Position numbers and translations under genes: made by a program. The notes under the pieces are model-generated. The model saw nothing but the letters and a program-made list of their open reading frames with translations. It did no database searches and had not been told where the DNA came from. DNA of 64,000 nucleotides from Desulfuromonadales bacterium (lineage in GTDB: Bacteria > Desulfobacterota > JAENJC01): contig CAKKSC010000021.1 in NCBI GenBank assembly GCA_919902985.1, positions 29,676 to 93,675 on the forward strand, given 5' to 3'. Each line of letters starts with the position of its first letter. Within the stretch, counting starts at the first letter, position 1. Below, piece by piece: positions 35,203-57,216 of this stretch.

Positions 35203-35235
35203 GTTACAGTTATATTACAGTTCCCTTAAAATTGT
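35203..35235 (-). promoter_or_regulatory. Pho-box-like array upstream of pstS: GTTACA / ATTACA / CTTAAA hexamers at exact 11-bp phasing
   Basis: On the plus strand the hexamers start at 35203, 35214 and 35225. Read on the gene's coding strand they are TGTAAC-type repeats 49-80 nt upstream of the pstS ATG. This resembles PhoB/PhoP boxes (E. coli CTGTCAT-N4 repeats; B. subtilis TT(A/T/C)ACA repeats). Confidence 0.6.
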
Positions 35236-35260
35236 CAAGCCGTGCTTCTACCCCATCCCC

Positions 35261-35350
35261 GCCCTGACCCTCTACCCACAGGGCATAAACCCTTGAAGGG
35301 GAGGAACTTTTTTCCTCTCCATCAGGGAGAGGATTAAGGTGAGGGTAGGG
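35261..35350. repeat. ~100-bp GC-rich palindromic element, inverted copy of 7269..7367
   Basis: See the paired feature. Located between the porin gene stop and the pstS promoter. Confidence 0.6.
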
Positions 35351-35356
35351 TAATCT

Positions 35357-36601
35357 TTAGAAGTACAACTGGGCCTGTACCTGATAGACATCTTTTTTGG
35401 CTGCATCCGCTAAATAGCCGCTCGCGTTTTTGCCGTAGGATGAATTTACCCAGTTGGCGCCAATCTTGAAGCTGTGGCCTTTGCCGTACCAGTTTACACC
35501 TATGGTGGTGTCCTTTTCCTCAGTGTCATCCGCACCGGCGGCCGCATTGGAGTTGTGGTCATAGATTTCATACCTTACAACAGGCTCAAGGTTTATGCCG
35601 GGGATGAAGTAACCTGCCTGCGCATACCAGCCCGTCGGCTCCTTGTCACTTGTTGCTGCATTGCTGTAATCGATCTTCCATGCCGTATATTCGCCCTGAA
35701 GGGTAAGGCCTCCAAAGTGGGCCGAGATGTCCACTCCCATAAGGGTCCTGCTCTCGCTGTCGCCGCTGGCGCCTGTGTATTCTATGGAGCCCTGTGATGC
35801 AGTGCTGAAGCCGAGGGTTACATGCTGTCCTTCTCCAAGATGAGCGTCGCTCTTACCCTTCTCCACAAATCCAGGAGGTGAGACCTCTACCCTTCCCATA
35901 AAGACCGGGTTGGACTTTTGGACTTTTACATCTGTAGAGGTTGTAGTAACAACACCAGTTGTGAGGTCTGCAGTAGATGTGCTTGTTCCTGTTTTAATTA
36001 TGTTCTTGTTCTCCCATCCGTCTGCCGTTGCCAGATTGTAAGATATCATCCCTTCCGCAATGCTGCCGTGGAGCATGGCATTGGTCTGGTAGTAGTCATC
36101 GAAAAGCTTCTTTGCCGCCTCTGTGGATACCGGCCTCTCAATCAGGAGCTGCTTTGATGAAGAGGTGAGGGATATCCTTGAGTATGGAAGCTTTGCCTTC
36201 CCGAAGCGGAGGTTAGCGGTATCCGCAAACTTATAGTCAAGATATGCATACAGCACCTTGACTTCATTTGCAGCGGATGCACTGGTGCTCCCACTCTTGC
36301 CGTTCTTGTCCATCTCCAGGGTCAGGTTGTACTTCAACTCCTTTGTAAGCTTTCCGTCCATCTCAAGGCGGAGCCTCCTGAGATACATATCCGTTTCGGA
36401 CTCATAGGACTTCCCGTCCTTGCTTGTTATCAGGTCGCCCATATCAAACCTCGGCTGCATGCGGGTCCTGATGCTGAAGTCGGTATCATCGCTGATCTTT
36501 ACCTTAAGTCCCTTTGTCTCCTCGCCCATTGCAAAATCCTGAGCAAATGCCGGCGCGGTCATTGAGAGCGCCAGAGTTAATGCTAATAACGTTTTTTTCA
36601 T
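35357..36601 (-). CDS. Outer-membrane beta-barrel porin, probably a phosphate-selective porin O/P family member
   Basis: Signal peptide (MKKTLLALTLALSMTAPAFA). Alternating amphipathic beta-strand character and a C-terminal ...QAQLYF aromatic terminus. Adjacent to the pst operon. Confidence 0.55.
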   Translation of the reverse strand: MKKTLLALTLALSMTAPAFAQDFAMGEETKGLKVKISDDTDFSIRTRMQPRFDMGDLITSKDGKSYESETDMYLRRLRLEMDGKLTKELKYNLTLEMDKNGKSGSTSASAANEVKVLYAYLDYKFADTANLRFGKAKLPYSRISLTSSSKQLLIERPVSTEAAKKLFDDYYQTNAMLHGSIAEGMISYNLATADGWENKNIIKTGTSTSTADLTTGVVTTTSTDVKVQKSNPVFMGRVEVSPPGFVEKGKSDAHLGEGQHVTLGFSTASQGSIEYTGASGDSESRTLMGVDISAHFGGLTLQGEYTAWKIDYSNAATSDKEPTGWYAQAGYFIPGINLEPVVRYEIYDHNSNAAAGADDTEEKDTTIGVNWYGKGHSFKIGANWVNSSYGKNASGYLADAAKKDVYQVQAQLYF

Positions 36602-36655
36602 CTGTTTTTCTCCTTTTTTATTTGATTTTACATCTTACGTCTTTCGTCTAACGTC

Positions 36656-37009
36656 TCACTTGGTCTCATGCCTCTTGTCATATTCCTTCTGTGCCAGTTC
36701 AGACTCGAAGATCACGGTTTCGCTGTTCGGGCCATAACCGAAACCGCTTACAGGCTTTCCGCCGAGCTTCCCTGTATTTTCCCATGCAGCCTTTGCCTTA
36801 GGCGAGACGAAGACATAAATCTTTTCGTCCTTTGGCACCTCAAAGTAGGCATTTGCTTTTTCTTTGCCCGGAACGAGCTTACCGCCATCCAGCTTGAAGT
36901 ATTCGACAGTCGGTTCTGCCGGCGCCTTGGCTGTCTGTGAAGTTGCGCAGCCGCTGATCAGCCCGGCCACGAGCAATCCAATTAAAGTGATGTATCTTTT
37001 AACCCTCAT
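36656..37009 (-). CDS. Small lipoprotein of unknown function
   Basis: Signal peptide with lipobox LISGC. 117 aa. Lies immediately upstream of, and co-directional with, the porin gene. Confidence 0.5.
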   Translation of the reverse strand: MRVKRYITLIGLLVAGLISGCATSQTAKAPAEPTVEYFKLDGGKLVPGKEKANAYFEVPKDEKIYVFVSPKAKAAWENTGKLGGKPVSGFGYGPNSETVIFESELAQKEYDKRHETK

Positions 37010-37059
37010 TTATTCACCCCCTTTCATTTAAGATTTTTCTGTTTTTCATCTCTGATGAA

Positions 37060-37190
37060 GTCGTAAAAAGTCCGAGAAATACTTTTTTTTCGTCATTCCG
37101 GCGAAAGCCGGAATCCAGTGATTTTAAATAGTTATAAAAATCCTGGACACCGGTTTTCACCGGCGAGACGACTTTTTACGAGACCATCAT
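37060..37190. repeat. Structured ~130-nt element bounded by a perfect 12-bp inverted repeat (TCGTAAAAAGTC / GACTTTTTACGA) containing two internal hairpins
   Basis: Internal hairpins are TTCCGGCgaaaGCCGGAA and CACCGGttttCACCGG. It lies in the long leader between a Pho-box-like array (37323..37361) and the lipoprotein gene. Confidence 0.4.
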
Positions 37191-37322
37191 CTCTAACACA
37201 GCCACCCTACTTCCTTTTACCCCGAACTTTATTTGTCCCTCCTGCCTCATCCTGCCGGTAGCATCGGCAAGAGGAAGCAGAAGGAAACGGCGGGTAGAAC
37301 GAGGCCAGTATAGTTTAGGATT

Positions 37323-37361
37323 GTTACGGTGTTATTACGGGAATATTAAGATTAGGTTACA
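37323..37361 (-). promoter_or_regulatory. Pho-box-like array: GTTACG / ATTACG / ATTAAG / GTTACA at 11-bp phasing
   Basis: Hexamers start at 37323, 37334, 37345 and 37356. It lies ~310 nt upstream of the lipoprotein-porin unit and just 3' of the response-regulator gene stop. Confidence 0.5.
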
Positions 37362-37719
37362 ATAGGTATGTGGCTACCTTCCTCTTTAAATCAAAGATGT
37401 CTCCTTTGCATATATATCCCTTTACCCTGCACTCTGCCACCGCTCTCCTCAGGCTGTCCTCATCATTGGAGGAATGAAAGACGATAGGCACATCACACCT
37501 TTGAAGCACCAGCTTTGCGAGGTTGTCACCGGAGAGGGCGGGCATGTTTATATCAAGCAGGACAATATCCGGCCGGGATGTGGTGATGCGATTTATGACT
37601 CCAAATCCGCTGACATGGGTGGCTACATCATATCCCTCAGCAGTCAACAACTCCTTCGTTGCCATTAGCAGCATCTCATCATCATCTACAACAAGAATCT
37701 TCTTTTTAAACTTTTCCAT
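37357..37719 (-). CDS. Single-domain CheY-like response regulator
   Basis: REC signature (ILVVDDDE...VLLDINMPALSG...IVFHSS...K). 120 aa. Confidence 0.8.
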   Translation of the reverse strand: MEKFKKKILVVDDDEMLLMATKELLTAEGYDVATHVSGFGVINRITTSRPDIVLLDINMPALSGDNLAKLVLQRCDVPIVFHSSNDEDSLRRAVAECRVKGYICKGDIFDLKRKVATYLL

Positions 37720-38905
37720 GATCTATTACCTCCTCTTTTGAGTTTTTTATCGGCAGATGGACTTCAAACGAAGTCCCCTCCCCGAACCTGCTTGATACCG
37801 AAATAGAGCCTCCCAACAAATCCACAAGGTTTTTTGTTATTGTCAGGCCGAGTCCTGTCCCTTCATGCCTTTTTGTCTTTGCATCCTCAACCTGGCTGAA
37901 CGCCGTGAAGAGCTTGTCGAGGTCTGCCTCTTTTATCCCTATTCCCGTATCCTTGACAGATATCGCAACCATCTCTTCCCCAGCGGTCACTGCCAGTGTC
38001 AATCTTCCCTTGTCTGTGAATTTTGCCGCATTGCTTGTAAGATTTATCAGTATCTGACGGACTTTGATGGGATCGGAGACCGTAAATACGGGGCCGTCGT
38101 GGGCAACCACCTCAACATCGACCGGCTTGTTCCCTACGAGAATCCTTGCAGTCTCCGCCACTTCCCGAAGAAGAGGTATAATGTCAAAAGTCTCAAGGAA
38201 GACGTCCATCTTTCCCGCCTCAATCTTGGAAAGGTCGAGGATGTTGGTAATAATGGTCCTCAGATGGGTTGCGCTTGACATCATGACGGACAGGCGGTCC
38301 CTCAGTTGGCCTATGTCGCTTTTTTCGGAAGAAATCCTCATCAGTTCCGCCAGACCGATGATGGCGTTCACCGGCGCCCTTAGCTCATGTGTGACATGGG
38401 CAATAAACTGGGACTTCACCTGATTCACTTTTTCAAGTTCCTTCGCCCTCTCCCGCGCCATCTCTTTCTGAACAACGCTGTTTGCAAGGGCATGGCTCTG
38501 GTGGATCACCATCTGCTTCACTGATAGAAGCCCCTTGTAACGGTTGTCCCAGTCCACCAGCATGATTTCGTCATAGATGTCCTGGTCAGGCCTTGACAAT
38601 GCCCTGTCTATGGCGATGTCAAGCTTTTCGTCTTCTCTCATAATGAGGGGATTTGTGTCCGCAATAGCAATGATGGGCTTTTTGCCGAAAAGTTCAAACC
38701 CGAACCTTCGGAACAATGTAAACAGGAGCTTGGGCCTTGTAACGAGCCCCACAGGTCTTCCATCATCAACCAGAGCTACGGCGTCAAGGGTGGTAGATTG
38801 GTAAAACCTGTCTGCCACGTGGCCGGTAAGCGTGGTCGGAGAGAGCCATTCTTTTGATGTAATAAGGCTTCCGATAGGTTGCGAATCGGTCTGTAATGGT
38901 TCCAT
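37706..38905 (-). CDS. Sensor histidine kinase with N-terminal CBS-pair-like domain (HisKA + HATPase_c)
   Basis: H-box FIAHVTHELRAPVNAI. N, G1 and G2 boxes (LTSNAAKFT, DTGIGI, GTGLGLTITKNL). The ORF is open to 38995, but a GGAGA RBS precedes the ATG at 38905. Overlaps the RR gene by 14 nt. Confidence 0.75.
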   Translation of the reverse strand: MEPLQTDSQPIGSLITSKEWLSPTTLTGHVADRFYQSTTLDAVALVDDGRPVGLVTRPKLLFTLFRRFGFELFGKKPIIAIADTNPLIMREDEKLDIAIDRALSRPDQDIYDEIMLVDWDNRYKGLLSVKQMVIHQSHALANSVVQKEMARERAKELEKVNQVKSQFIAHVTHELRAPVNAIIGLAELMRISSEKSDIGQLRDRLSVMMSSATHLRTIITNILDLSKIEAGKMDVFLETFDIIPLLREVAETARILVGNKPVDVEVVAHDGPVFTVSDPIKVRQILINLTSNAAKFTDKGRLTLAVTAGEEMVAISVKDTGIGIKEADLDKLFTAFSQVEDAKTKRHEGTGLGLTITKNLVDLLGGSISVSSRFGEGTSFEVHLPIKNSKEEVIDHGKV

Positions 38906-39032
38906 ATCTTTCTCCGGCAAAGTCCCCGTGTATTGGGAATTTATTCTTGTTCTTCCCCCGCCCGATCTACCGGTAGCAGGGCCGCCGGGCCGCACATACC
39001 AATGGTCAGGTCTTGAAAAATCAGTCAGCCTG

Positions 39033-39515
39033 TCAAACCAGCTCCAATCGCCCCTTCGTAAATCCCCCTTTGCCCACTTTGTAAAGGGGGGTAATGGTTA
39101 AGAGTTTTTCCGCGAAAAAGGATAAGAGCCTATCCTTTATCTCATCCCGCACATGGCGGAATTCATACATAATCTCCTCTTCGCTGCCAATAGCGCCTGC
39201 CGGGTCCGAAAAGCCTATATGGGTTATCTCCACCCCGCCGAAAAAGTAGGGACATGTCTCATGAGCGCTGTCGCACAGGGTGATGACGTAATCGAAGGTT
39301 TGATCTTGAAATTCAGACATCTCTTTTGAGCGATGTCCGGAGATGTCTATCCGTATCTCCTTCATGACTGCGATCGCACGGGGATTGACGTAAGTCGCCC
39401 TGGTCCCTGCTGAAAAGGCCTCTATCCTGTCTCCCAGGAAGTGGTTTACAATCCCCTCAGCCATCTGGGAACGGCATGAGTTTGCGGTGCAAAGGAATAG
39501 TACTCGTTTTTTCAT
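39033..39515 (-). CDS. Low-molecular-weight phosphotyrosine phosphatase / ArsC-type arsenate reductase family protein
   Basis: P-loop signature LCTANSCRSQMAEG (C-X5-R) near the N-terminus, typical of LMW-PTP/ArsC (Trx-type). Confidence 0.7.
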   Translation of the reverse strand: MKKRVLFLCTANSCRSQMAEGIVNHFLGDRIEAFSAGTRATYVNPRAIAVMKEIRIDISGHRSKEMSEFQDQTFDYVITLCDSAHETCPYFFGGVEITHIGFSDPAGAIGSEEEIMYEFRHVRDEIKDRLLSFFAEKLLTITPLYKVGKGGFTKGRLELV

Positions 39516-39708
39516 CTTATGCTCAATTCAGCGAAATATTTATTCACTGGTCCTCTTGAGAAGAGCAAGCCTTTCCAGGACTATTTCTATTATCCTGAAA
39601 GTCTTAGCGACAACTTGTTTCGGGAACCTTCCTGGTCTCGTCAGGCGATACCTCCACACCAGCAGGCCGTTTCTGATCCTGTCATCTGCCATATTTCTAA
39701 ATATCTGT

Positions 39709-40731
39709 CTATATCTTTTTAACATCGATTCTCTTCCGCACAGCCTCACGGAGCGAATCCATTGTCGGGCATAGCTCCGCAAGATTCTTTCTGCTCAAAA
39801 AGGTCATATTCTCTGTCTCAGGGCCGGGAAGGGGAGGGCGGCAGGCTATCATTGGCAAACCCTTTACCAGGCATTCTGCTACCGTAGCCCCTCCCGGCTT
39901 TGTAATGCAGAGATCACTTATATCCATCAGCTCGTACATATTCTCAATATAGCCAAATACAAAGAGACGAGGATAGTTTTGTTTTAACAGGTCGAGCCTC
40001 TGCCTCAGCTTTTCATTTCTGCCTGTCACTATGAGGCACTGAACTGGAAACTCCTTTAAGACCTTGACAACATCTTCTATCCTCCCCAGCCCCTCTCCGC
40101 CTCCCAGGACAAGCACTGTATAAGTTTCAGGTTTCAGGTCCGGATCAATTTTCCTGCAGAGCTCTTTTCTGTTCCCCTTTCTGTGAAAAACCTGTCTTAC
40201 AGGAAAGGGCTTCACCACTATAGTCATTTCCGGTACGCCGTTCAGTATCATCCTCTCTCTCAGTTCTTCAGTGGCCACAGAAAAGCAGTCCAGGCGGCAG
40301 GTGTTCCAGTATGTGTCGTCAAGGAAATCGGTCAGGACTCCATGAACGGCCTTTATTGATGGGTATCTCGCTTTTAATTCGGATGAAGCCATGGCGCAGA
40401 AGACATGCGTGGATATGATCAGGTCCGGCGAAAAGTTGTTGACAAACTTTTCCATCTTCTTTAGATAAGGCCTGAAGAGAAGATTCGAGAACCATTTATA
40501 TTCGGCAAACCTTTGATAAAAGAAGTGGTACGCGCCAGGTGTAAATCTGATTGTTGAAAAATAGAAGGCGCTCCTTAGTTTGTCTCTCAGCCCTCCGTCA
40601 TAACTCAAAAAATCCACAACCCGGACATCCGCGCCTGGGAAGTCACGACAGACAGATTCAGCCAGTGCCTCTGCCGCCATATTGTGGCCTGAACCGTAGC
40701 CGATGGTCGCGATCAATATTTTTTTATACAT
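39709..40731 (-). CDS. GT28-family glycosyltransferase (MGDG-synthase / processive diacylglycerol glycosyltransferase-like), a candidate glycolipid synthase
   Basis: The N-terminus IATIGYGSGHNMAAEAL and overall length match bacterial/plant MGDG-synthase-like (UgtP/MGD) enzymes. Co-operonic with the PAP2 and DAG-kinase-like genes. Confidence 0.6.
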   Translation of the reverse strand: MYKKILIATIGYGSGHNMAAEALAESVCRDFPGADVRVVDFLSYDGGLRDKLRSAFYFSTIRFTPGAYHFFYQRFAEYKWFSNLLFRPYLKKMEKFVNNFSPDLIISTHVFCAMASSELKARYPSIKAVHGVLTDFLDDTYWNTCRLDCFSVATEELRERMILNGVPEMTIVVKPFPVRQVFHRKGNRKELCRKIDPDLKPETYTVLVLGGGEGLGRIEDVVKVLKEFPVQCLIVTGRNEKLRQRLDLLKQNYPRLFVFGYIENMYELMDISDLCITKPGGATVAECLVKGLPMIACRPPLPGPETENMTFLSRKNLAELCPTMDSLREAVRKRIDVKKI

Positions 40732-41259
40732 CTACCCGATCACCCATATCAGGGTGCTGGACACCCCTATCCCTATGAGGCCCCCGACGATGACATCGGT
40801 CGGATAATGGAGCGACAGAAAGACCCTGGAGATGGCAATTAGGGACGCCATGACGAAAAGCGGAATAAACAGTAGCGGGAAGAACCAGGCCGCTGCCGTT
40901 GCAATGGCAAAGGCGTTTATTGAATGACCGGATGGGAATGAGTATTCATCAGGCGGTGGAAGGATAAACTCCATGTCTACGTAAGTCTCAAAGGGCCTCT
41001 TTCTTGTAGTGCTGTGCTTGATGGCCTTAAATACCGCCACGCACAGGATGACCGATATGATTCCTATTAATACAGCTTTCTGCCCGTCACTGCCCCCAAA
41101 TATGAGCAAAGACAGGCTCAGGAAGAGCCATATTGGGCCGTCCCCCAGCTTGCTTGAAATGACCATCAGGTCGCTTAGCCACCGGTGCGACTTGAGGTCC
41201 CCCAGACGGTAACTTATGAGAGAGTCGTATTTATATATTGTTTCCATAATTACTGCCAT
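40732..41259 (-). CDS. PAP2-family (type 2 phosphatidic acid phosphatase) membrane phosphatase
   Basis: All three PAP2 motifs are present: KxxxxxxRP (KHSTTRKRP), PSGH (FPSGHS) and SRxxxxxHxxxD (SRVFLSLHYPTD). Confidence 0.75.
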   Translation of the reverse strand: MAVIMETIYKYDSLISYRLGDLKSHRWLSDLMVISSKLGDGPIWLFLSLSLLIFGGSDGQKAVLIGIISVILCVAVFKAIKHSTTRKRPFETYVDMEFILPPPDEYSFPSGHSINAFAIATAAAWFFPLLFIPLFVMASLIAISRVFLSLHYPTDVIVGGLIGIGVSSTLIWVIG

Positions 41260-41279
41260 ATATTCCTCCTTAACTATTC

Positions 41280-41338
41280 GGGGACAGTCCCTATTCTACG
41301 ACTTCGCTGCGCTTCGTCCGTAAATTGGGACAGTCCCC
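41280..41338. repeat. 59-bp REP-like element, copy 3 of 3
   Basis: The core is identical to copy 1 (tattctacgacttcgctgcgcttcgtccgtaaat) with the same GGGACAGTCCC termini. Lies between the PAP2 and DAG-kinase-like genes. Confidence 0.8.
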
Positions 41339-42208: not shown

Positions 42209-42407
42209 AAGAAACCGATTCCATTACCCTGGAAATCGTCCGGCTCCTGAACTCGTTCCGAAAGAGATGGGCCAGGAGTATAGGGCAATTGGAGTGGTCC
42301 TCTGACTCGCAGTATTTCACCAGGTCAGAGAGATCTGGAGTCAGCTGGCCCAAAGAGGCCTGACAAAAAGATTTGTGTTCTTTATGCCCAAGATATATAC
42401 AGGTCAT
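42198..42407 (-). CDS. Small Cys4-His protein, paralogue of 55176..55379; first gene of a Pho-box-preceded operon
   Basis: 69 aa with the pattern C-x-Y-L-G-x9-C-x-A-S...Y-C-x-x-E-x-H-x-x-C-P-x-L-L-x-H, shared with the paralogue. Overlaps the DAGK-like gene start by 11 nt. Confidence 0.45.
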   Translation of the reverse strand: MTCIYLGHKEHKSFCQASLGQLTPDLSDLVKYCESEDHSNCPILLAHLFRNEFRSRTISRVMESVSYGY

Positions 42408-42460: not shown

Positions 42461-42499
42461 GTTACGGAATAGTTACAGGGAAATTAAGATTTGGTTACA
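42461..42499 (-). promoter_or_regulatory. Pho-box-like array: GTTACG / GTTACA / ATTAAG / GTTACA at 11-bp phasing
   Basis: Hexamers start at 42461, 42472, 42483 and 42494. The nearest repeat is 54 nt upstream of the small Cys-protein ATG (42407). A TATATAAT-like -10 hexamer lies between the array and the ATG. Confidence 0.6.
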
Positions 42500-43568: not shown

Positions 43569-43608
43569 AACCTCTCCTTATATATTTGTCCCGAAAATAG
43601 CCGTTCTT

Positions 43609-43672: not shown

Positions 43673-43675
43673 GCT

Positions 43676-47889: not shown

Positions 47890-47942
47890 AGAGATGCCCT
47901 TTTTATATAAGAATGATCGTAACAATGACGAAATCTACCAGC

Positions 47943-50073: not shown

Positions 50074-53000
50074 TGTTTCACCTCGCTTTTTGTCGCCTCA
50101 TTTACCACCAGCGGAAGAAATGCGCTCCCCCCGATAACAAGACCGTCAACAATGCTTAACGGAGCAATTCCAAGGAGACCTCGCAACCCCGGCACTACAA
50201 GGGTCAATCCCTGCAATGCAAAGGAACCGGCCAGGGCGGCGTTCAGATAGCCGTTGGACTGCATGCCCGATCCGGGGGCACTATCGAAGATCCCATGTGT
50301 CTCCGACCTGCAGCTTAACGCATGAAGAAGCTGTCCGGAGGTCAGACTCATAAATGCCATGGTGCTTGCCTGCGGCCCAATTCCATACCTCATAATGCCG
50401 TATCCATATGCGCTGAGGGCCCCGGCTGAAAGCACTGAGGACTCGAAGAAAATCCGCTTGAAATCAGAACTCTTTACAATCGGCTCATCGGGGTCCCTTG
50501 GGGGGCGTGTAAGAACGTCCGGTTCCGGCGGCTCCATTGCCAGGGCAAGGCCTGGCGCTATATCGGACATGATATTGATCCATAAGAGCTGAATTGCGCT
50601 CAACGGCTCTCCAAAGCCTCCGGCGATAGATGTGAACATGACCGTTATCTCACTGATATTCGTGGAAAGAAGGAAATGGACAGACTTCCTTATGTTGTGG
50701 TAGATGGTCCTCCCCTGACTTATGGCAATGATCATGGTTTCAAGGTTGTCATCCTCAATCACGACATCCGCAACCTCGCGGGCTACATCGGTTCCGGTCT
50801 GCCCCATGGCTATCCCCACGTCTGCTGCTTTCAAAGCCGGGCCGTCGTTAATCCCGTCACCCGTCATGGCGACAACCTTGCCGGCCCTTTGAAAGGACTG
50901 GACTATCTGGAGCTTATGGGCCGGACTGACCCTGGAGAAGACCCGGACCCTCTCGCACAGGGCCGTCAACACCTTGGGATCCATTTCTTTCAGGTGGGAA
51001 GAGTCAAGTATCTCAAGCTGCTCCTCCATGCTGAGATTCAACTCTTTCCCGATAGAGTAGGCGGTGGGGCTCTGGTCGCCGGTGATCATGACCGTATCAA
51101 TACCTGCTGCATGGAATTTGCCTATCAGTTCTTTAACGCCTTTACGGACAGGGTCTGCCATGCCTACAAGGCCCAGCCATATAAGGTCGTATGAGGTCGA
51201 GAGGTCGAGAGGTTGAGAGGTTGAGAACTCCTCATCATCACAGATTCTCAACTTCTCATCTTCTGAATGAGTATAAGCCATGCCGAGAACCCGCAATGCA
51301 TCCCCTGCCATGCGCTCATTCACAGTCTCTATAGAGAAACGGTCGTTGTCGGTCAAAGGAAGTTTTTGGCCGTCTTTTATAAACCAGTTACATTGAGAGA
51401 GCACCTCATTGGGGCTCCCCTTTACCGCCGCCAAAAGTCTCTGTCCACCTGTCCCTTCTGCTGATGCATGATAGGAAACCATGTAGTTGCGGTTTTCGGA
51501 GCGGTGGACCATCCTGGTCAGCGGAAATTTCTTCCTTAGGCGGTCTATATCAACGCCGGTGCTGATTGCCATATGCAGCAGCGCATTCTCGGTAGACGAA
51601 CCGTTCAGGATGTATTCTCCATCGTTCATGGTTACCTCACTCTCATTGCACAGTACTGATATATGAATTAACCTGAGCAATTCGTCGTTGGAGTAAGGAT
51701 TTACGATGCCGTTTCCGGAAACAAAATTATTTTCAGAGATCCTTATATGTTTCATTCCGGTGTGTATTGCAACAACCGACATCCTGTTCATGGTAACGGT
51801 CCCTGTCTTGTCAAGGCAGATGGTCTGGACCGCACCCAGCGCCTCCACAGCGTCAAGATGCCTTATCAGGACGTTGTGTCTGCGCATCTTTCGAATGCCT
51901 AAAGCCAGGGTGGTTGTTGCGACCGTTGGAAGACCTTCCGGAACTGCGGCAACGGCCAGGGATATGGCAGACTTAAACATATGAAGAAAACCGTATCCTC
52001 TAAGAATGCCTGCAATGAATACTATGCCGCACACACCGCCGCAGATAAGCACTATTTGAGTGCCTATAGTATCAAGTTGTTTTTCCATGGGAGTTTGAGG
52101 AGGCCTTGTCCCGCCGACCAGGATTTGAATCATCCCTATCTCTGTATATCTGCCGGTGGCAATAATCACAGCCAGCCCCTGTCCGCCGGTAACGAGGGTC
52201 CCCATGTAGACGATGTTCGTCCTGTCCGCAAGAGGGATATTCTCGTCGGATGCAATAATTTCAGCCGTCTTGATAGCAGGCATACTTTCGCCTGTGAGGG
52301 CCGATTCGTCGACGCTTAAGTGTGTGGCCTCTATAAGTCTGGCATCTGCTGCCACATAACTTCCAGGTCTAAGGACAATAATGTCGCCAGGCACAAGTTT
52401 ACCGGCATTTATATTAGTGTAAAGGCCGTCTCTTATAACAATGGCTGACGGTCTGACAAGGCTCTTAAGGGAATGGATCGTCCTTTCCGTCTGCATTTCG
52501 GTAAAATACCCTATGGCCGCATTTATGCCTACTACACCAATTATAACCGCCGCATCAGCCACTCCTCCGGTAAAAATGGATATGCCAGCGGCCACTCCCA
52601 GGAGCGCTACAGGCAAAGATTTAAACTGTTCAAACAGCACGCTGAGCCCGGAGCGCGGGACAGACTCAGGGAGAAGATTCGGGCCGAATCTTTTTGTCCT
52701 GTCACTGACCGATTCAACAGTTAATCCGTTTTTCCGGTCAGTACCCATCAGATCAAGGACCTGGGCAGTACCCATAAGGTGCCAGGCTTCTACCGGCTGT
52801 TCCTGAGCACTGTTAATCAGCTTTCTGAGGGCCGGTCTGCCTGTTATCGGGGAGAAGCCAACTAACTTTTCCCCCCCTTTAGAAAAAGGGGGAGAGGAGG
52901 GGTTTGGTGTCTCAGGATTACTATTGTTGAAATAATCAATTACTACGCTTTCAAGGAGAGATGCAATGTCATTGGATGTATTCCCGGAGTTGAAGAGGAC

Positions 53001-53159
53001 AAGGACGTTGCCGGTCAGAGTATTAATGGCAACGTATGAAATCTCCTGCCTGTGTGAGAACCTTGCCTCTATATATTCCCTCAGGGGCTCCGAACGGTAA
53101 AGCCCTTTTACCTTATATCGAGCCCTTCCGCTTACAGCGGTGTTTATAGTCTGAACCAT
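50070..53159 (-). CDS. P-type cation-transporting ATPase (type II, Ca2+/cation-ATPase-like) with an extra N-terminal HMA-like (CoBaHMA-like) domain
   Basis: Phosphorylation site CLDKTGTVTMN; TGDQ (MITGDQ); hinge GDGINDGPALKAADVGIAMG; a Cation_ATPase_N-like segment (AWHLMGTAQVLDLMGTDRKNGLTVESVSDRTKRFGPN). The first ~60 aa (RARYKVKGLYRS...AINTLTGNVLVLFN) resemble the small HMA-like proteins. Confidence 0.85.
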   Translation of the reverse strand: MVQTINTAVSGRARYKVKGLYRSEPLREYIEARFSHRQEISYVAINTLTGNVLVLFNSGNTSNDIASLLESVVIDYFNNSNPETPNPSSPPFSKGGEKLVGFSPITGRPALRKLINSAQEQPVEAWHLMGTAQVLDLMGTDRKNGLTVESVSDRTKRFGPNLLPESVPRSGLSVLFEQFKSLPVALLGVAAGISIFTGGVADAAVIIGVVGINAAIGYFTEMQTERTIHSLKSLVRPSAIVIRDGLYTNINAGKLVPGDIIVLRPGSYVAADARLIEATHLSVDESALTGESMPAIKTAEIIASDENIPLADRTNIVYMGTLVTGGQGLAVIIATGRYTEIGMIQILVGGTRPPQTPMEKQLDTIGTQIVLICGGVCGIVFIAGILRGYGFLHMFKSAISLAVAAVPEGLPTVATTTLALGIRKMRRHNVLIRHLDAVEALGAVQTICLDKTGTVTMNRMSVVAIHTGMKHIRISENNFVSGNGIVNPYSNDELLRLIHISVLCNESEVTMNDGEYILNGSSTENALLHMAISTGVDIDRLRKKFPLTRMVHRSENRNYMVSYHASAEGTGGQRLLAAVKGSPNEVLSQCNWFIKDGQKLPLTDNDRFSIETVNERMAGDALRVLGMAYTHSEDEKLRICDDEEFSTSQPLDLSTSYDLIWLGLVGMADPVRKGVKELIGKFHAAGIDTVMITGDQSPTAYSIGKELNLSMEEQLEILDSSHLKEMDPKVLTALCERVRVFSRVSPAHKLQIVQSFQRAGKVVAMTGDGINDGPALKAADVGIAMGQTGTDVAREVADVVIEDDNLETMIIAISQGRTIYHNIRKSVHFLLSTNISEITVMFTSIAGGFGEPLSAIQLLWINIMSDIAPGLALAMEPPEPDVLTRPPRDPDEPIVKSSDFKRIFFESSVLSAGALSAYGYGIMRYGIGPQASTMAFMSLTSGQLLHALSCRSETHGIFDSAPGSGMQSNGYLNAALAGSFALQGLTLVVPGLRGLLGIAPLSIVDGLVIGGSAFLPLVVNEATKSEVKQ

Positions 53160-53225
53160 GACAGAACTGGTTTCCTTTCTAACTTCTACAGGAGTGACAG
53201 CTTTTACAAGACCTTATTAGTGTCT

Positions 53226-53948
53226 TTATCGTTTATTAATAGGATATTTGCCCTGTTTCCCTTTTACCCTGCCGGCAGCCTCAGGCTCCTCAATTTCTTC
53301 CTTTACCGGAAAGACCCTTTCTTCCAGAGTGGCTGCAGCAGCCGTCCTCGGCTCCGGCAGGGCAGCACATGCGATGTCCTTAATGCCGCCAACCACACCG
53401 ACCAGTATGTCTTTAACCGACCTGACGGCTGTGTTTCCGATATCGCCGGCCGCCTCAATGGCGCTACTGACAGCGACAGCAGCCACCTGTCCCACATTTC
53501 CACCTACTTCCCTTGTTGCCTCTATGACGCCGTCAACTGTCCTTCTGGCGACCATGGCCACATCGGCCCCGATCTCAGCTGCTCCATTGACAGCGCCTTT
53601 TACCGTCTGTCCAGCAGCAGTAATCACGTCTCCGCCCACATCGCTCACACCCATTACGACCCCCTTTGCCACACTCTTGGTGCTAAGGGTGAGCCCTGTG
53701 CCTACCTCCTCAGTTGCGGCTATTGCCCCCTTAATGACATCTTTTGTAATGTTTACGGTTTCGCCCGCCACGTCGCCTGTTGTCCGCAGGGCATTGGAAA
53801 CAGTGGCCCTCACAAGGCCCACGATCTCCGCCTGGATTTCATTTATTCCTTTCAGGCTTCCTACGATACCTTCCTTAACCGAGTTGCCTGTGCTGCTTAA
53901 TCCTACTTTGATTGTTGTCCCGCTTGTTTCTGTTGTTTCGGTGATCAT
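53226..53948 (-). CDS. Repeat-rich amphipathic protein (Val/Gly/Ala/Thr-rich ~11-residue periodic repeats)
   Basis: AAGGAGG RBS 7 nt before the ATG at 53948. The sequence is dominated by repeats such as TVKGAVNGAAEIGADVAMVARRTVDGVIEATREVGGNVGQVAAVAVSSAIEAAGDIGNTAV. The opposite-strand ORF is low-complexity and rejected. Confidence 0.45.
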   Translation of the reverse strand: MITETTETSGTTIKVGLSSTGNSVKEGIVGSLKGINEIQAEIVGLVRATVSNALRTTGDVAGETVNITKDVIKGAIAATEEVGTGLTLSTKSVAKGVVMGVSDVGGDVITAAGQTVKGAVNGAAEIGADVAMVARRTVDGVIEATREVGGNVGQVAAVAVSSAIEAAGDIGNTAVRSVKDILVGVVGGIKDIACAALPEPRTAAAATLEERVFPVKEEIEEPEAAGRVKGKQGKYPINKR

Positions 53949-53995
53949 TTTATTCCTCCTTTGAATTTTTACCACAAAGCCTTGCGGGTTAATTT

Positions 53996-54454
53996 TTATG
54001 CTCCTTTGAGAAAGATGTTCATCCCGTACCAGATAGCTGTATACCAGGGGATTGAAGCCGCGTTTCCAATACTGATCTGGTATAGACCCGCAGCCAAAAG
54101 TATTAGAAAGGCCAGGGTTGAGATATCCAGTTCATGGCCTGTTAACCTTTTAACCTGCGTATTGAAGTCATTGAAAGTAGTTTTTATCCCTGCAGCCACA
54201 GTAGGGGTCTGATTTGCTCCGTTAAGCCTGAAGAGCTTATTGGTTTCAGCAATTTTCATTACCGATGTAGAGTTTCCTGAATGGATTATCAGTATACTCC
54301 CGGTCAGTGGATTGACCTCTGTCCGGTCTATTCCCTTATGTTGCTGCAATAAGGCGTTGGCGTTCTTAAAGTAACTATCATCGCCCTTTTTGGATGGAAT
54401 TTTTACCCGTATTCTTCCAGAGGTCTGATGGCTGAGGTACGCATCAGGCAGCAT
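53996..54454 (-). CDS. HMA-like (CoBaHMA-like) domain protein with C-terminal hydrophobic segment
   Basis: MLPDAYLSHQTSGRIRVKIP...NPLTGSILIIHS, then a predicted TM helix (ISTLAFLILLAAGLYQI). The ORF is open to 54535. Confidence 0.4.
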   Translation of the reverse strand: MLPDAYLSHQTSGRIRVKIPSKKGDDSYFKNANALLQQHKGIDRTEVNPLTGSILIIHSGNSTSVMKIAETNKLFRLNGANQTPTVAAGIKTTFNDFNTQVKRLTGHELDISTLAFLILLAAGLYQISIGNAASIPWYTAIWYGMNIFLKGA

Positions 54455-54755
54455 TAACAGCGCCCTCCTGAGCGATGCCGGCTGTTTGCACGACCTCCTG
54501 CTGGGGCTCGGCCAGCTCGGATTTCGACTCGGCAATAAGGTCTTCGACTACCTCCTGCATCTCGGCCATTACCTCTTTTCCTTTTTCAAAGACGATGAGT
54601 CCCCCCTTGATTGCGCCCTTGGCCAGGGGCTTTGCGACCGCTGCCGCAATAGGTATAACGATAGGCGCCAGTATTGCAGCGCCCAGACCTATTACAAGCA
54701 TAGGTACGATGTTGCTCCCTTTTAGAACGCCTGTGATGTCATCAAACAGTGCCAT
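54444..54755 (-). CDS. Small membrane-associated protein resembling the DUF5132 family (tentative)
   Basis: 103 aa: MALFDDITGVL...PMLVIGLGAAILAPIVIPIAAAVAKPLAKGAIKGGLIVFEKGKEVMAEMQEVVEDLIAE. One hydrophobic helix followed by an amphipathic acidic tail. Confidence 0.4.
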   Translation of the reverse strand: MALFDDITGVLKGSNIVPMLVIGLGAAILAPIVIPIAAAVAKPLAKGAIKGGLIVFEKGKEVMAEMQEVVEDLIAESKSELAEPQQEVVQTAGIAQEGAVNAA

Positions 54756-54784
54756 TTGTCCTTTACCTCCTGATTTGAAATAGG

Positions 54785-55156
54785 CTATATGAGTATAGCC
54801 AAATATGATAAAGCGCTTCCTTCAAATGCCTTCTCTACAAATGTCCCGAAAAGGGCTTTTTTAACGACATGTCCTGCCTTTGTAACAGCAGAGTGTATAT
54901 ACTGGTCGTTTGTTATGGCCCTTGAAGGATCAAAATAGCTGGCCCTTCTGAGAACGCCTAATATCTCCCTGGAATGAACAGTCCTTGGATCATAGTTGAT
55001 TACAATGCTTCCAGTAATAATATTAATTTCGGTAGACAATATTCCCTTGATTTGCCGGAGCAGACCCCCAACCTCCTCAGCTATCCAACCTTTCCCTTTA
55101 ATCGCTGGATTTTTAACCCTTAATCTACCAGGGACATCGTGAATATAATGATCCAT
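54785..55156 (-). CDS. Small HMA-like (CoBaHMA-like) domain protein
   Basis: GGAGGTG RBS 8 nt before the ATG at 55156. MDHYIHDVPGRLRVKNPAIK...NIITGSIVINYDP. The ORF is open to 55189. Confidence 0.45.
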   Translation of the reverse strand: MDHYIHDVPGRLRVKNPAIKGKGWIAEEVGGLLRQIKGILSTEINIITGSIVINYDPRTVHSREILGVLRRASYFDPSRAITNDQYIHSAVTKAGHVVKKALFGTFVEKAFEGSALSYLAILI

Positions 55157-55175
55157 CCAACTCACCTCCACTTTT

Positions 55176-55379
55176 TTATTTAAAAGCAAAGTCGTTATAT
55201 CTTTGTCCGTGATTTAAGCCATGCACCATGAGTAGTGGACAGCGGTGATGCTCTTCGGTTTTGCAGTACCTTTCAAGTTCAAAGGCGCTTGGAGTCATAT
55301 GAAATGTAGAGGCATTACACATCTTATTTTTTTTGATAGTTCCTAAATACGGGCAATCGCCTATTTCACTTGGCTTCAT
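55176..55379 (-). CDS. Small Cys4-His protein, paralogue of 42198..42407; first gene of the cation-cluster operon
   Basis: 67 aa: CPYLGTIKKNKMCNASTFHMTPSAFELERYCKTEEHHRCPLLMVH, with the same Cys/His spacing as the paralogue. Confidence 0.45.
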   Translation of the reverse strand: MKPSEIGDCPYLGTIKKNKMCNASTFHMTPSAFELERYCKTEEHHRCPLLMVHGLNHGQRYNDFAFK

Positions 55380-55422
55380 AAAAACCCCCTCATTTTGATC
55401 TGCTACACTTTAAACTATAAAT

Positions 55423-55461
55423 ATTACAAGATTGTGACAGTTGCATTAAGATTTGGTTACA
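55423..55461 (-). promoter_or_regulatory. Pho-box-like array: ATTACA / GTGACA / ATTAAG / GTTACA at 11-bp phasing
   Basis: Hexamers start at 55423, 55434, 55445 and 55456. The nearest repeat is 44 nt upstream of the ATG at 55379. A TATTTATAG -10-like element follows. Confidence 0.6.
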
Positions 55462-56512
55462 GTTGAGCCTTTCTGAACGATACTGTAAAGGTGCTTCCGA
55501 CTCCCTCTTTGCTTTTTACCGAGATACTGCCGCCCATTGCATCCATAAGCAATCCGACAATATAAAGGCCCAGTCCGGTCCCTTGTGCCCGTTCGCTGCC
55601 TTTAGCACGAAAAAACTTTTCAAATATCTTTGGCAATTCATCCTCAAAGATTCCGTATCCTGTATCCTTGACAGAGACCTCAATGCCGTTGGATATATTG
55701 TTGGTATATATCCAGATATTCCCATTTTTCCTGTTATATTTAACGGCATTGGATAAGAGGTTTATCAGTACCTGTCTTATCGCAACGGTATTACCGCCGA
55801 CCACACAGGGCTGGTCGTTTATGAGATGGATATCTATCTCCTTACTCACCGTATTGGCACTGACTGTGTTTATTGCCCAGTTAAGCTGCTCGGAAATGTC
55901 GACATTTTCCAAAGGAAATAAACCATCGCCTTTCTCAAGTTTAGACAAGAGAAAGGCATCGTTTAAAAGGCTGTCCATATGGTTGGCGCTGGAATTTACG
56001 TAATACAGGTATTTGCCGTTATCTCCATTCTCCATTGCCAGCTTGCTGAAGCCTCCAACAGTAGTAAGAGAGTTTTTCAGCTCATGGACCAGATATTGAA
56101 GGGAGTCATGCCCTTCTTTCTCTTTTCTTTTAAGGGTTTTTATAGTCTTTTCTTTTTCCAGAAGCCTCTTTACCCTGAGCATCAGTTCCTTTACTGAAAA
56201 CGGCTTCGAAAGGTAATCATCAGCGCCAATGGTTAGACCCTTAATCTGTTCCTCCTTTGTAGACAGGGCAGTGAGCATGATTATAGGTATAGTCATACCT
56301 TTAGAACGCAAGGCTTCACAAGTTTCCCATCCGTTAAGACCTGGGAGCATTATGTCCAAAAGTATGAGATCGAGGTTATGCGTCTGTAAAGCAATTATAG
56401 CCTCTTCCCCGTTTTGGGCAGTCACGGTGCTGTACCCTTCCTTGTGGAGGTTGTACCTGAGCAGCTCAATAGTGTCCTTTGTGTCCTCAACGATTAAGAC
56501 CGTTTCATTCAT
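55457..56512 (-). CDS. Hybrid response regulator - histidine kinase (REC - HisKA - HATPase_c)
   Basis: N-terminal REC (VLIVEDTKD...ILLDIMLPGLNG...IIMLTA...K). H-box LVHELKNSLTTV. N, G1 and G2 boxes (LLSNAVKYN, DTGYGI, GTGLGLYIV). Confidence 0.8.
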   Translation of the reverse strand: MNETVLIVEDTKDTIELLRYNLHKEGYSTVTAQNGEEAIIALQTHNLDLILLDIMLPGLNGWETCEALRSKGMTIPIIMLTALSTKEEQIKGLTIGADDYLSKPFSVKELMLRVKRLLEKEKTIKTLKRKEKEGHDSLQYLVHELKNSLTTVGGFSKLAMENGDNGKYLYYVNSSANHMDSLLNDAFLLSKLEKGDGLFPLENVDISEQLNWAINTVSANTVSKEIDIHLINDQPCVVGGNTVAIRQVLINLLSNAVKYNRKNGNIWIYTNNISNGIEVSVKDTGYGIFEDELPKIFEKFFRAKGSERAQGTGLGLYIVGLLMDAMGGSISVKSKEGVGSTFTVSFRKAQL

Positions 56513-56648
56513 CTCGGCATCCAGTGGAATATGGCTGTCACTATCCCGACAACTGTAATGGCTGCCAGAAACATTTCTATTACCTTCTGTGATTCGTCGT
56601 TAAACATCTTCCCCTCCTTTTTGTTTCCGAAAATAATACCCGCCGTTT

Positions 56649-56708
56649 TGTAGGGGAGGGGCTTGTCCCCTCCAGTTGCGGGGGGGCACAAGGGACCGCC
56701 CCTACATG
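56649..56708. repeat. Second copy of the GTAGGGGAGGGGCTTGTCCCCTCCAG...CCCCTAC REP-like element
   Basis: See 43609..43672. The 69-aa ORF 56509..56718 is largely a translation of this repeat. Confidence 0.7.
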
Positions 56709-57130
56709 GATGTTTCAATTATTTTACCTGGAGACCTTGTAATAGCCATGAGTCTCAACCCTCCAAGCGCTGTAATCAAAAGGGACATGGCAATCAGTTC
56801 CTGCCACTCAAGTCTGTGTTGATAGAGCGCTATCATTAGTTCCCTCATGATAAAGACCAGGGTCATGTCTGCGATAAGGGTTATCCTGACCCTGTGGAGC
56901 TCAAAGTATTCCAGGAGTCCCTTGAAAAGCTCCAGGACAACAATCATCCCAAGGATGTCCGAGACCAGCGTATTAAACCCGACCTCTATGCTTGCACTGA
57001 ATATCTTTCCCATGTCGAGAAAAATCCTGGCAGTGCCGATCACGAGGGCAAGGATGACAAACAGGGTAAGTGTCTTGAACACAGTATCTGTTGCGACCTG
57101 CGAGGCCTTCTTAAAATCAACATTTATCAT
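56702..57130 (-). CDS. Small 4-TM membrane protein resembling the phosphate-starvation-inducible PsiE family (tentative)
   Basis: 142 aa with four hydrophobic helices and a central ...LELFKGLLEYFELHRVRITLIADMTLVFIMREL... region similar in layout to PsiE. Preceded by a Pho-box-like array. Confidence 0.4.
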   Translation of the reverse strand: MINVDFKKASQVATDTVFKTLTLFVILALVIGTARIFLDMGKIFSASIEVGFNTLVSDILGMIVVLELFKGLLEYFELHRVRITLIADMTLVFIMRELMIALYQHRLEWQELIAMSLLITALGGLRLMAITRSPGKIIETSM

Positions 57131-57177
57131 ACGTTTATCTCCTTTTTATGATTTCAGATGGAGTTTAACAAAGGATT

Positions 57178-57216
57178 GTTACGGGTTTATGACGGATAGG
57201 TTAAGATTTAGTTACA
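57178..57216 (-). promoter_or_regulatory. Pho-box-like array: GTTACG / ATGACG / GTTAAG / GTTACA at 11-bp phasing
   Basis: Hexamers start at 57178, 57189, 57200 and 57211. The nearest repeat is 48 nt upstream of the PsiE-like ATG (57130). It lies in the intergenic region shared with the divergent intI gene. Confidence 0.55.

Follow-up and report, generated by a model that had tools for sequence, protein, structure and literature searches.

Predicted Pho-box promoters precede six transcription units, two of them uncharacterised gene sets, in a 27-kb block of a Desulfuromonadales genome

A 64,000-nt stretch of the genome of a Desulfuromonadales bacterium (GenBank assembly GCA_919902985.1, contig CAKKSC010000021.1, positions 29,676 to 93,675; the window in what follows) contains six arrays of direct repeats, phased at 11 bp, in front of six minus-strand transcription units. 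Judged from the sequence, these arrays are very probably Pho boxes, an element of a known kind. This reading is well supported in silico by the geometry of the arrays, the regulator encoded beside them, the match to a validated site of Desulfovibrio vulgaris and the occurrence of the same arrays before phosphate genes elsewhere. We infer binding by PhoB, induction at low inorganic phosphate (Pi), the extents of the operons, and the functions of two of the gene sets concerned, a cassette headed by a gene for an 829-aa protein and a cluster encoding CoBaHMA-domain proteins.

Results

Phased repeat arrays at six minus-strand promoters

Four copies of the hexamer [ACT][TG]T[AC]A[CT], with starts exactly 11 bp apart, occur five times in the 64-kb window, always on the minus strand (first bases 57216, 55461, 47337, 42499 and 37361) and never on the plus strand. 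Not one of 200 first-order Markov shuffles of the window contained such a four-hexamer array, and three-hexamer arrays numbered 10 against a shuffled mean of 0.005. A position weight matrix of the repeat unit, applied to the whole 64 kb, gave the five arrays scores of 39-46, with a best plus-strand score of 4.1, and disclosed no further four-unit site. On the gene strand the arrays align as TGTAAC-CAAAT-CTTAAY-N5-YGTMAY-N5-YGTAAC, the second repeat being almost always CTTAAY.

Array 1 (57178-57216) reads TGTAAC-TAAAT-CTTAAC-CTATC-CGTCAT-AAACC-CGTAAC, followed by the -10-like hexamer TAAACT (57167-57162), and is kept in L007, L003 and others (L numbers designate the loci compared). Array 2 (55423-55461) is TGTAAC-CAAAT-CTTAAT-GCAAC-TGTCAC-AATCT-TGTAAT with TAAAGT at 55412-55407, and array 3 (47299-47337), kept in L016 and L077, is ATTAAC-CAATT-CTTAAC-ACAAC-CTTAAC-ATCCC-TGTAAC with TATAGT at 47288-47283. 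Arrays 4 (42461-42499; TGTAAC-CAAAT-CTTAAT-TTCCC-TGTAAC-TATTC-CGTAAC) and 5 (37323-37361; TGTAAC-CTAAT-CTTAAT-ATTCC-CGTAAT-AACAC-CGTAAC) are followed by TAAAAT (42450-42445) and TATACT (37312-37307), respectively. The sixth and weaker array, before pstS (35241-35203), has two good repeats, CTGTAAT-ATAA-CTGTAAC, and two weak ones upstream, GGCTTG and TTTAAG; its -10-like hexamer is CATACT (35192-35187), and it is kept in L015.

At all six sites the -10-like hexamer begins exactly 10 nt past the last repeat. The array thus stands in for the -35 element, as in the Pho promoters of E. coli. Sites fitting the sigma-70 -35/-10 consensus occurred at the chance rate (22 against 24.8 expected) between 37.3 and 57.3 kb, an interval that holds five of the six promoters, and the sigma-70 and terminator consensus scan of this interval, being at chance level, was of no help in delimiting operons. 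The start codon lies 47, 43 or 53 nt past the last repeat in three units and 48 nt past it in the case of pstS, if this gene starts at the ATG at 35154, which is preceded by a Shine-Dalgarno sequence, and not at the alternative position 35175. Two leaders are long, with 196 nt before the 829-aa gene and 313 nt before a lipoprotein gene.

A first-pass annotation of this DNA had placed six arrays at 35203, 37323, 42461, 47299, 55423 and 57178, all of which proved to be the promoter-proximal ends of minus-strand arrays. The exact phasing, the uniform orientation relative to the downstream genes and the array before pstSCAB-phoU-phoB that it described are borne out by the counts and shuffles and by the positions given above, and the TATAAT-like hexamer that it had seen between array and gene is now pinned to one position at every site. 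Other details needed revision. The claim of three to four hexamers per site holds for the five arrays with four and is generous for the pstS site with its two; the proposed form [GA]TTA[CA][AG] leaves out TGTCAC and CGTCAT, which resemble the E. coli half-site; and a repeat-to-start distance of 44-54 nt describes four units (43-53 nt) and not the 829-aa and lipoprotein genes.

Comparison with known Pho boxes, and the regulator

The PhoP repeats of B. subtilis, TT(A/T/C)ACA, and the SphR repeats of cyanobacteria, PyTTAAPyPy(T/A), are established elements of this type. Like the arrays described here they are direct repeats at 11 bp, and the gene-strand form CTTAACA contains both consensus forms, although the regulators are orthologous at family level only. 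At E. coli pstS there are four repeats, and tandem boxes, ending some 10 bp short of the -10, replace the -35 element. The E. coli Pho box itself combines a 7-bp unit with a 4-bp A/T-rich spacer, giving an 11-bp period and the half-site CTGTCAT (cf. Makino, Wanner, Blanco et al.). Our arrays share with it the unit and spacer, the replacement of the -35 element and half-sites, CTGTAAC and CCGTCAT, akin to CTGTCAT and on the same strand; they differ in preferring TGTAAC and CTTAAC, and in this genome phoB ends the pst-phoU operon and no phoR lies nearby. The resemblance to the CTGTCAT and TTAACA repeats of E. coli and B. subtilis that had been proposed for these arrays exists on the gene strand, as CTGTAAC(A) and CTTAAC(A), and not on the plus strand.

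The closest validated comparison comes from another deltaproteobacterium, D. vulgaris, whose PhoB site AGGTTACAGCATAGTTAC (GTTACA-N5-GTTAC) was confirmed by electrophoretic mobility shift assay (PMC6456213, from Rajeev et al. 2011). The hexamer is identical, GTTACA being TGTAAC on the other strand, and so is the 11-bp spacing, whereas the D. vulgaris site at por has two repeats upstream of a sigma-54 promoter and the four repeats here are placed directly before a -10 of the sigma-70 type.

The window encodes a single winged-helix response regulator, at 29897-30580, where its gene closes the pstSCAB-phoU operon. By far its best match in NCBIfam is the PhoB family TIGR02154, with 289.7 bits where the cutoff is 296.2, and the next family follows at 217. 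Three histidine kinases, at 26563-27849, 37706-38995 and 55457-56512, were considered as PhoR and rejected in an NCBIfam scan, since their scores of 132-159 bits lie far below the PhoR cutoff of 334, in agreement with the earlier remark that no phoR adjoins phoB.

Conservation of the arrays and their occurrence elsewhere

Array conservation upstream of orthologues had been suggested as a check on the reading. In three metagenome-assembled genomes (MAGs) labelled 'Deltaproteobacteria bacterium', at 70-90% DNA identity, the array and the -10 of orthologous promoters are unchanged and the sequence upstream of them can no longer be aligned.

A strict 39-nt array pattern, scanned against one genome per GTDB species and against JGI metagenomes, gave 18 and 53 loci, respectively. 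We estimate its information content at about 48 bits, which would give about 0.004 chance matches per 1.2e12 equiprobable positions, and more in A/T-rich genomes. Outside the close clade, the strict array stands in gene orientation shortly before pstS in one MAG each of Thermodesulfovibrio and Bacteroides (L004, L011), before pstC in L044, L051 and L060, where the promoters are of the Bacteroidetes type, and before OprP-like or other porins in L009, L013 and L036. It also precedes genes for a PHP phosphoesterase (L028, L033), a calcineurin-like metallophosphoesterase (L068) and two NPP-type phosphodiesterases (L062), a distant psiE (L031) and, in a close relative, phnD-phnC (L026). The order lipoprotein-porin(-pstCAB) recurs downstream of an equivalent array in L006, L015 and L036. 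In L079 there are three four-hexamer arrays of the form (A/C/T)TTAA(C/T), against 0.003 expected, all in gene orientation and each followed at exactly 10 nt by a -10; downstream of them lie the 829-aa cassette, a solitary CoBaHMA gene and an EAL-domain gene, and L078 is similar for the cassette and the CoBaHMA gene.

About 15 of the strict-pattern matches (L008, L018, L024, L032 and some 12 others; GC 0.27) represent one near-identical sequence from human-gut clostridia, TGTAACCAAATCTTAATTTCTTTGTAATATTTTTGTAATA..., to which we return below. At the promoter of the 829-aa cassette in L023, only a CTTCATGA-N3-CTTCATGA repeat was seen.

Phosphate uptake, porin, psiE and glycolipid units

Pfam and NCBIfam confirmed the earlier gene assignments, except for the corrections given with the individual units. 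Behind array 6 lie pstS (likely start 35154), pstC, pstA, pstB, phoU and phoB (29897-30580), a minus-strand unit, as are all six, of 29897-35175. Array 5 precedes a unit (35357-37306) with a leader of about 300 nt, the 5' third of which is conserved, a 117-aa lipoprotein (36656-37009) and a phosphate-selective OprO/P porin (35357-36601). Array 1 precedes a unit (55457-57130) that comprises, by Pfam, a psiE-like gene (56702-57130), a small open reading frame (ORF) and a receiver-HisKA-HATPase hybrid kinase (55457-56512); psiE and the response regulator-histidine kinase fusion recur behind a matching array in the distant L031 (58% and 46% identity). The hybrid protein (55457-56512; L031 907-2025) has no sensor, its receiver is closest to PhoB receivers, and a role in feedback or as a phosphate sink is conceivable.

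The unit behind array 4 (37357-42407) begins with a gene for a small four-cysteine protein, Cys4A (42198-42407), followed by a YegS-type lipid kinase (41291-42208), a PAP2 phosphatase (40732-41259) and a glycosyltransferase of family GT28, similar to monogalactosyldiacylglycerol synthase (39709-40731). Three more genes follow after a gap of 193 nt, one for an arsenate reductase of the ArsC type (39033-39515), one for a histidine kinase with a CBS domain (37706-38995) and one for a regulator that consists of a receiver only (37357-37719). Whether they are co-transcribed with the glycolipid genes is uncertain; in the relative L026, ArsC directly follows GT28, and the kinase and the regulator are absent.

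Cys4A (69 aa) has a paralogue, Cys4B (67 aa, 55176-55379), 38% identical, with the cysteine pattern C-x11-C-x17-C-x7-C and the consensus CPYL..CxAS..P..YCxTEEHYRCPxLLA, and each of the two genes heads a Pho-box unit. A word-indexed search for Cys4B homologues gave one near-identical match, and an exhaustive HMMER search gave about 80 clusters of 55-75 aa, all lacking annotation. In L062 an unrelated zinc-ribbon protein occupies the Cys4 position.

The long leader of the lipoprotein gene (37300-37010, minus strand) is of variable length in relatives, between about 99 and 313 nt. The initial ~100 nt are kept and include a pyrimidine/purine hairpin, and a palindromic insert of about 125 nt (about 37190-37065) is absent from the relatives. 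Rfam, applied at gathering threshold to the whole window and at an E-value threshold to this leader, returned no credible family, the hairpin-like matches having E-values of 0.03-0.9. Two leaders of L079 (3613-3690 and 14138-14215), again behind Pho-box-type arrays, have in common a motif of about 80 nt, TAAGGACAAC..CGG.AGAGGGA.TTC.TCC.TCTCTC..CCG.AATTT, which includes a purine/pyrimidine hairpin and may be an undescribed leader RNA.

The ligase/decarboxylase/transferase cassette

Array 3 precedes a unit (42528-47102) of three genes, encoding the 829-aa protein (44613-47102), a pyruvoyl decarboxylase similar to phosphatidylserine decarboxylase (Psd-like, 43676-44680) and an Lgt-like transferase (42528-43568); the first-pass annotation had listed the first two correctly and missed the third. 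The 829-aa protein has no match in Pfam, NCBIfam or the sequences of the PDB. By fold comparison it shares its catalytic fold with the glutamate-cysteine ligase (GCL)/carboxylate-amine ligase superfamily. Its invariant residues include E59, E61, H355 and several arginines. It differs from the known members of the GCL/YbdK/PafA-Dop/glutamine synthetase superfamily in its lack of profile similarity, in being about twice their size with large helical additions, and in that its gene always stands in an operon with Psd-like and Lgt-like genes. About 3,000 homologues, 55-67% identical, occur in Geobacter, Syntrophales, Desulfomonilaceae and the anammox Brocadiaceae, with no domain annotation; in every genomic context examined the Psd-like and Lgt-like genes follow. 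The neighbours are often related to phosphate, such as PstS-like, Ppx and CHAD proteins in Geobacter pickeringii and OprP and PstS in L079. In L078 and L079, genes for a GT4 transferase and a radical-SAM enzyme are added to the cassette, and L079 has one for a methyltransferase as well.

The Psd-like protein matches PF02666 with an E-value of 2.4e-35, and its self-cleaving pyruvoyl motif, PGSST, does not vary among six orthologues of four lineages. At 123 bits against 371 it misses the Psd equivalog cutoff and thus belongs to a paralogous subfamily. The Lgt-like protein reaches 41.7 bits with Pfam LGT (cutoff 24.9) and 18 bits with the NCBIfam equivalog (cutoff 334), and L078 has a separate LGT gene of canonical length near the cassette; by these scores the protein classifies as an Lgt paralogue and not as the housekeeping enzyme. 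The Psd-like gene begins 68 nt inside the 829-aa gene (44613-44680), an overlap also present in L023 and L077-L079, and the long form is taken to be real because its N-terminus, MFTI.HQY, is conserved. Together with the overlap of 4 nt between the genes for MetK and a P-type ATPase described below, this suggests translational coupling.

The cluster of CoBaHMA and putative Ca-ATPase genes

The unit at 47358-55379 follows array 2. It starts with Cys4B, continues with a CoBaHMA protein (54785-55156), a DUF5132 protein (54444-54755), a second CoBaHMA protein (53996-54454), a protein with a 22-residue repeat (53226-53948) and a Ca-type P-ATPase fused to a CoBaHMA-like domain (50070-53159, 1029 aa), and ends with MetK (48880-50073), a CDF transporter (47943-48773), a DUF3562 protein (47656-47889) and a third small CoBaHMA protein (47358-47651).

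The CoBaHMA domain was described from calcyanin and proposed to bind anionic lipids; its signature is a histidine on strand beta0 with a basic patch (PMC8890360). The proteins first called HMA-like are, by Pfam, CoBaHMA (PF19991, HMA_2) proteins. Against a cutoff of 30, PF19991 gives 55.8 bits (scored as 53996-54535) and 45.5 bits (scored as 54785-55189), and just below the cutoff 29.3 bits for the 47358-47651 protein and 26.6 bits for the N-terminus of the ATPase. All three small proteins have the signature H-x2-[PS]GR[IL]R (HDVPGRLR, HQTSGRIR and HHIPGRIR), and the ATPase N-terminus reads SGRARYKV, without the CoBaHMA histidine.

The identification of a P-type ATPase also stands, with the qualification that by its best family matches it is a Ca-type (P2A) enzyme, PMR1-type at 622 bits and SERCA-type at 542, each below the respective equivalog cutoff of 798 and 703; identity as a heavy-metal (P1B) pump was rejected on these matches. 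Cation_ATPase_N and _C domains and the DKTGT, TGES, PEGL and GDGxND motifs are all found. The end of the ATPase gene and the beginning of metK have 4 nt in common (50070-50073), and MetK exceeds its equivalog cutoff. The 249-aa repeat protein is rich in Gly, Ala and Val, with a 22-residue amphipathic periodicity and many charged residues. We rejected it as a calcyanin or GlyZip protein on periodicity and composition, a Gly-x3 zipper with a central Gly-Pro being absent. No calcyanin with a C-terminal (GlyZip)3 was found in the window, a weak test made without a calcyanin profile.

The cluster, MetK included, is kept in the distant contig L062 (55-77% identity) and also occurs in L077 and L026. 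In L077 an MgtE-type Mg2+ channel with CBS and MgtE domains (5957-6928) takes the place of the CDF transporter after MetK, the gene order being the same. The Pho-box array of L062 drives genes for a zinc-ribbon protein, a CoBaHMA protein, the two NPP phosphodiesterases and ArsC. With the arrays before CoBaHMA genes in L078 and L079, this shows that the association of CoBaHMA proteins, Pho boxes and lipid genes is not peculiar to the window.

Island structure and intergenic repeats

Between 29.9 and 57.2 kb all genes lie on the minus strand and the GC skew is reversed, changing sign near 30 kb and 58 kb. Close relatives differ in the cassettes that lie between the arrays. In L016 (MAG CoA_3_bin.27), array 3 directly drives an intact lipid kinase, and in our window the leader of the 829-aa gene (47273-47200, minus strand) encodes VRTKVIANPTAERGEKAID, a remnant of the N-terminus of a YegS-type kinase, followed by the 829-aa cassette, array 4 and Cys4A. 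The intact kinase there and the remnant here make the segment from the 829-aa gene to Cys4A look like an insertion, and the variable content suggests that each cassette came with a Pho box of its own or was captured behind one. A gene for a phage-integrase-family recombinase (57244-58293, plus strand) borders the block, next to the psiE Pho box and divergent from it.

The intergenic regions hold repeats of other kinds. A 63-nt element in three minus-strand copies, 83-97% identical (30587-30649, 31370-31432 and 41276-41338), folds into a long and almost perfect hairpin (GGGGACUGUCCC...GGGACUGUCCCC; -30 to -34 kcal/mol, z -4 to -5). The copies sit within operons, between pstB and phoU, phoU and phoB, and lipid kinase and PAP2, and may act as mRNA stabilisers or attenuators similar to repetitive extragenic palindromic elements. 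A 74-nt repeat (82% identical) lies between the Psd-like and Lgt-like genes (43596-43669) and after psiE (56635-56705), and a strongly folding 101-nt repeat (91% identical, inverted) between the porin gene and the pstS Pho box (35249-35349) and at 7269-7369. Upstream of the island, a plus-strand signalling block includes two PAS-GAF-GAF-HD(HD_5) paralogues (13527-15659 and 16237-18954; 78% identical over 1.6 kb) and HAMP-PAS, V4R/PAS, PAS histidine kinase and receiver-GGDEF proteins (11286-13019, 22122-23987, 24006-25265, 26563-27849 and 27892-28815).

Discussion

The first-pass interpretation of the arrays as Pho boxes is upheld by their geometry, their linkage to pstS and phoB, the match to the D. 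vulgaris site, their conservation and the genes that follow them elsewhere. Could the phased hexamers have arisen by chance, given their degeneracy and the A/T-richness of intergenic DNA? The shuffles refute this, and with all arrays on one strand, intergenic and at a fixed distance from a -10, the explanation is vanishingly improbable. We also think it unlikely that the arrays serve another regulator of the OmpR/PhoB family that responds to envelope, cation or arsenic stress, with pstS merely one of its targets. Such a regulator would fit the lack of a PhoR and a regulon concerned largely with cations and lipids and not with phosphorus as such, and the region does encode other two-component proteins (the CBS-domain kinase, the receiver-only regulator and the hybrid kinase with its PhoB-like receiver). 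These have no DNA-binding domain, however, leaving the PhoB-like protein as the sole winged-helix regulator of the window, and the motif equals the validated PhoB site of D. vulgaris and precedes pst, phn, porin and phosphoesterase genes across phyla.

A further explanation is that one promoter cassette was copied by duplication or recombination within a flexible island, some copies perhaps not being functional Pho boxes. The distal halves of the arrays are almost identical, spacers included, the content between arrays varies in close relatives (the segment from the 829-aa gene to Cys4A is absent from L015 and L016), a lipid-kinase remnant lies behind array 3 and an integrase gene flanks the block. 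Nevertheless, the flanks of the arrays are unrelated, the 10-nt spacing to the -10 is exact in every copy, orthologous arrays are kept at 70-90% overall identity, and analogous arrays with other hexamer variants occur in unrelated lineages. Common descent and function are, moreover, compatible, and as an alternative to functional Pho boxes we regard copying as very unlikely.

Several observations nonetheless weigh against the Pho-box interpretation. The near-identity of the distal array halves, which extends to the spacer (TGTAACCAAATCTTAAY), means that part of the similarity could stem from promoter duplication and not from site-by-site selection. The array before pstS is the weakest of the six, whereas the promoter of pstS usually ranks with the strongest of the Pho regulon. 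The score of the PhoB-like protein lies just under the trusted cutoff of TIGR02154, and no PhoR could be recognised in the window, where three histidine kinases were scanned. The leaders of 196 and 313 nt may add other controls, and the operon extents were taken from gene spacing only. Outside the window, the gut clostridial matches have no ORF within 400 nt downstream, and the cassette promoters of Geobacter, Brocadiaceae and Syntrophales showed no convincing array by the matrix of the window.

If the arrays are Pho boxes, each would consist of four 11-bp units (two good ones at pstS) of the form yTGTAAC/yCTTAAC plus an A/T-rich spacer, with room for two head-to-tail dimers of the phosphorylated OmpR-family regulator PhoB (29897-30580). 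The array would span about -24 to -62 in place of the -35 hexamer, and RNA polymerase would hence be recruited only when phosphorylated PhoB is bound, that is, by class II activation as at E. coli pstS. Transcription is predicted to start about 7 nt past each -10. Because they have Pho boxes in common, the six transcription units would be switched on together by phosphate limitation. The pstSCAB-phoU-phoB operon would provide high-affinity uptake as well as positive autoregulation, and co-induced with it would be the outer-membrane phosphate porin and its lipoprotein, psiE with the hybrid kinase, the glycolipid set of lipid kinase, PAP2 and GT28 with the arsenate reductase downstream, the ligase/decarboxylase/diacylglyceryl-transferase cassette, and the CoBaHMA/DUF5132/Ca-ATPase/MetK/CDF cluster.

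Genes for phosphorus-free lipids behind Pho boxes are established elsewhere (PMC7814305), and Desulfovibrio limited for phosphorus substitutes glycolipids (PMC5193443). The present block resembles the known systems for Pho-regulated lipid remodelling (PlcP/Agt/Pgt, the betaine lipid enzymes BtaAB, and OlsBA/OlsF for ornithine lipids) in having genes for phosphorus-free lipids under Pho boxes. It differs from the PlcP/Agt systems in the use of GT28 and not the GT4 enzyme Agt, and of PAP2 with a YegS-type kinase and not PlcP, while the ligase/Psd-like/Lgt-like cassette is without a characterised counterpart. In phosphorus-starved Desulfatibacillum alkenivorans, phospholipids are replaced by glucuronosyl lipids and 'N-butyramide cysteine glycerols' with the head-group ion C7H13O3N2S+, for which that study names no genes (PMC11181052). 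The skeleton of decarboxylated gamma-glutamyl-cysteine, C7 N2 O3 S, is the skeleton of this diagnostic ion. We can envisage that the 829-aa enzyme, with its GCL/PafA fold, forms an amide of the gamma-glutamyl-cysteine type; that the Lgt-like enzyme transfers a diacylglyceryl (or ether) moiety from phosphatidylglycerol to the cysteine thiol, which would free glycerol phosphate and make its phosphorus recyclable; and that the Psd-like pyruvoyl enzyme strips the alpha-carboxyl of the glutamate to yield a 4-aminobutyryl-cysteine glycerolipid. A ligase, a thiol diacylglyceryl transferase and a head-group decarboxylase would together explain the butyramide-cysteine structure. Our literature search found no paper that gives genes for butyramide-cysteine lipids or ties these cassettes to phosphate.

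The CoBaHMA cluster, for its part, might rebalance divalent cations and membrane surfaces as anionic phospholipids and polyphosphate disappear. In Microcystis that forms intracellular amorphous calcium carbonate, the ccyA neighbourhood encodes CoBaHMA-DUF454, two DUF5132 proteins and a Ca2+/H+ exchanger (bioRxiv 10.1101/2024.07.07.602159). As there, a putative Ca2+ transporter, DUF5132 and membrane-anchored CoBaHMA proteins are encoded together in our window; unlike there, no calcyanin was recognised, the place of the exchanger is held by an ATPase of probable P2A type with a fused CoBaHMA-like domain, the genes are under Pho-box control as predicted here, and MetK, CDF (or MgtE), DUF3562 and the 22-residue-repeat protein are added. 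The joint proposal, that the 829-aa cassette is the pathway for a phosphorus-free, sulfur-containing 'butyramide-cysteine' aminolipid and that the CoBaHMA cluster is a phosphate-starvation module, is tentative, and we hold it to be possible rather than probable.

The regulatory element itself is textbook Pho regulation, and its value lies in serving as a label that marks the genes wanted by the cell during phosphate starvation. The scans also show that one strict Pho-box pattern can serve across phyla to extract phosphate-starvation genes from metagenomes. In the 27-kb block, six such promoters place a candidate pathway for a phosphorus-free lipid and a cluster of CoBaHMA and putative calcium-pump genes under predicted phosphate-starvation control; both gene sets are large, conserved and uncharacterised, and this predicted control ties them to Pi limitation. 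For the 829-aa cassette, the link to phosphate starvation, the ligase fold and the recently described lipid class combine to make a directly testable candidate pathway. The association of CoBaHMA, DUF5132 and Ca transporters has hitherto been discussed only for intracellular carbonate in cyanobacteria; its presence behind Pho boxes beside lipid-remodelling genes in several lineages supports the published proposal that CoBaHMA domains act on anionic lipids and points to Pi limitation as a condition for their study. If the cluster is indeed a phosphate-starvation module, it would provide the first physiological context for CoBaHMA proteins beyond the CaCO3 inclusions of cyanobacteria.

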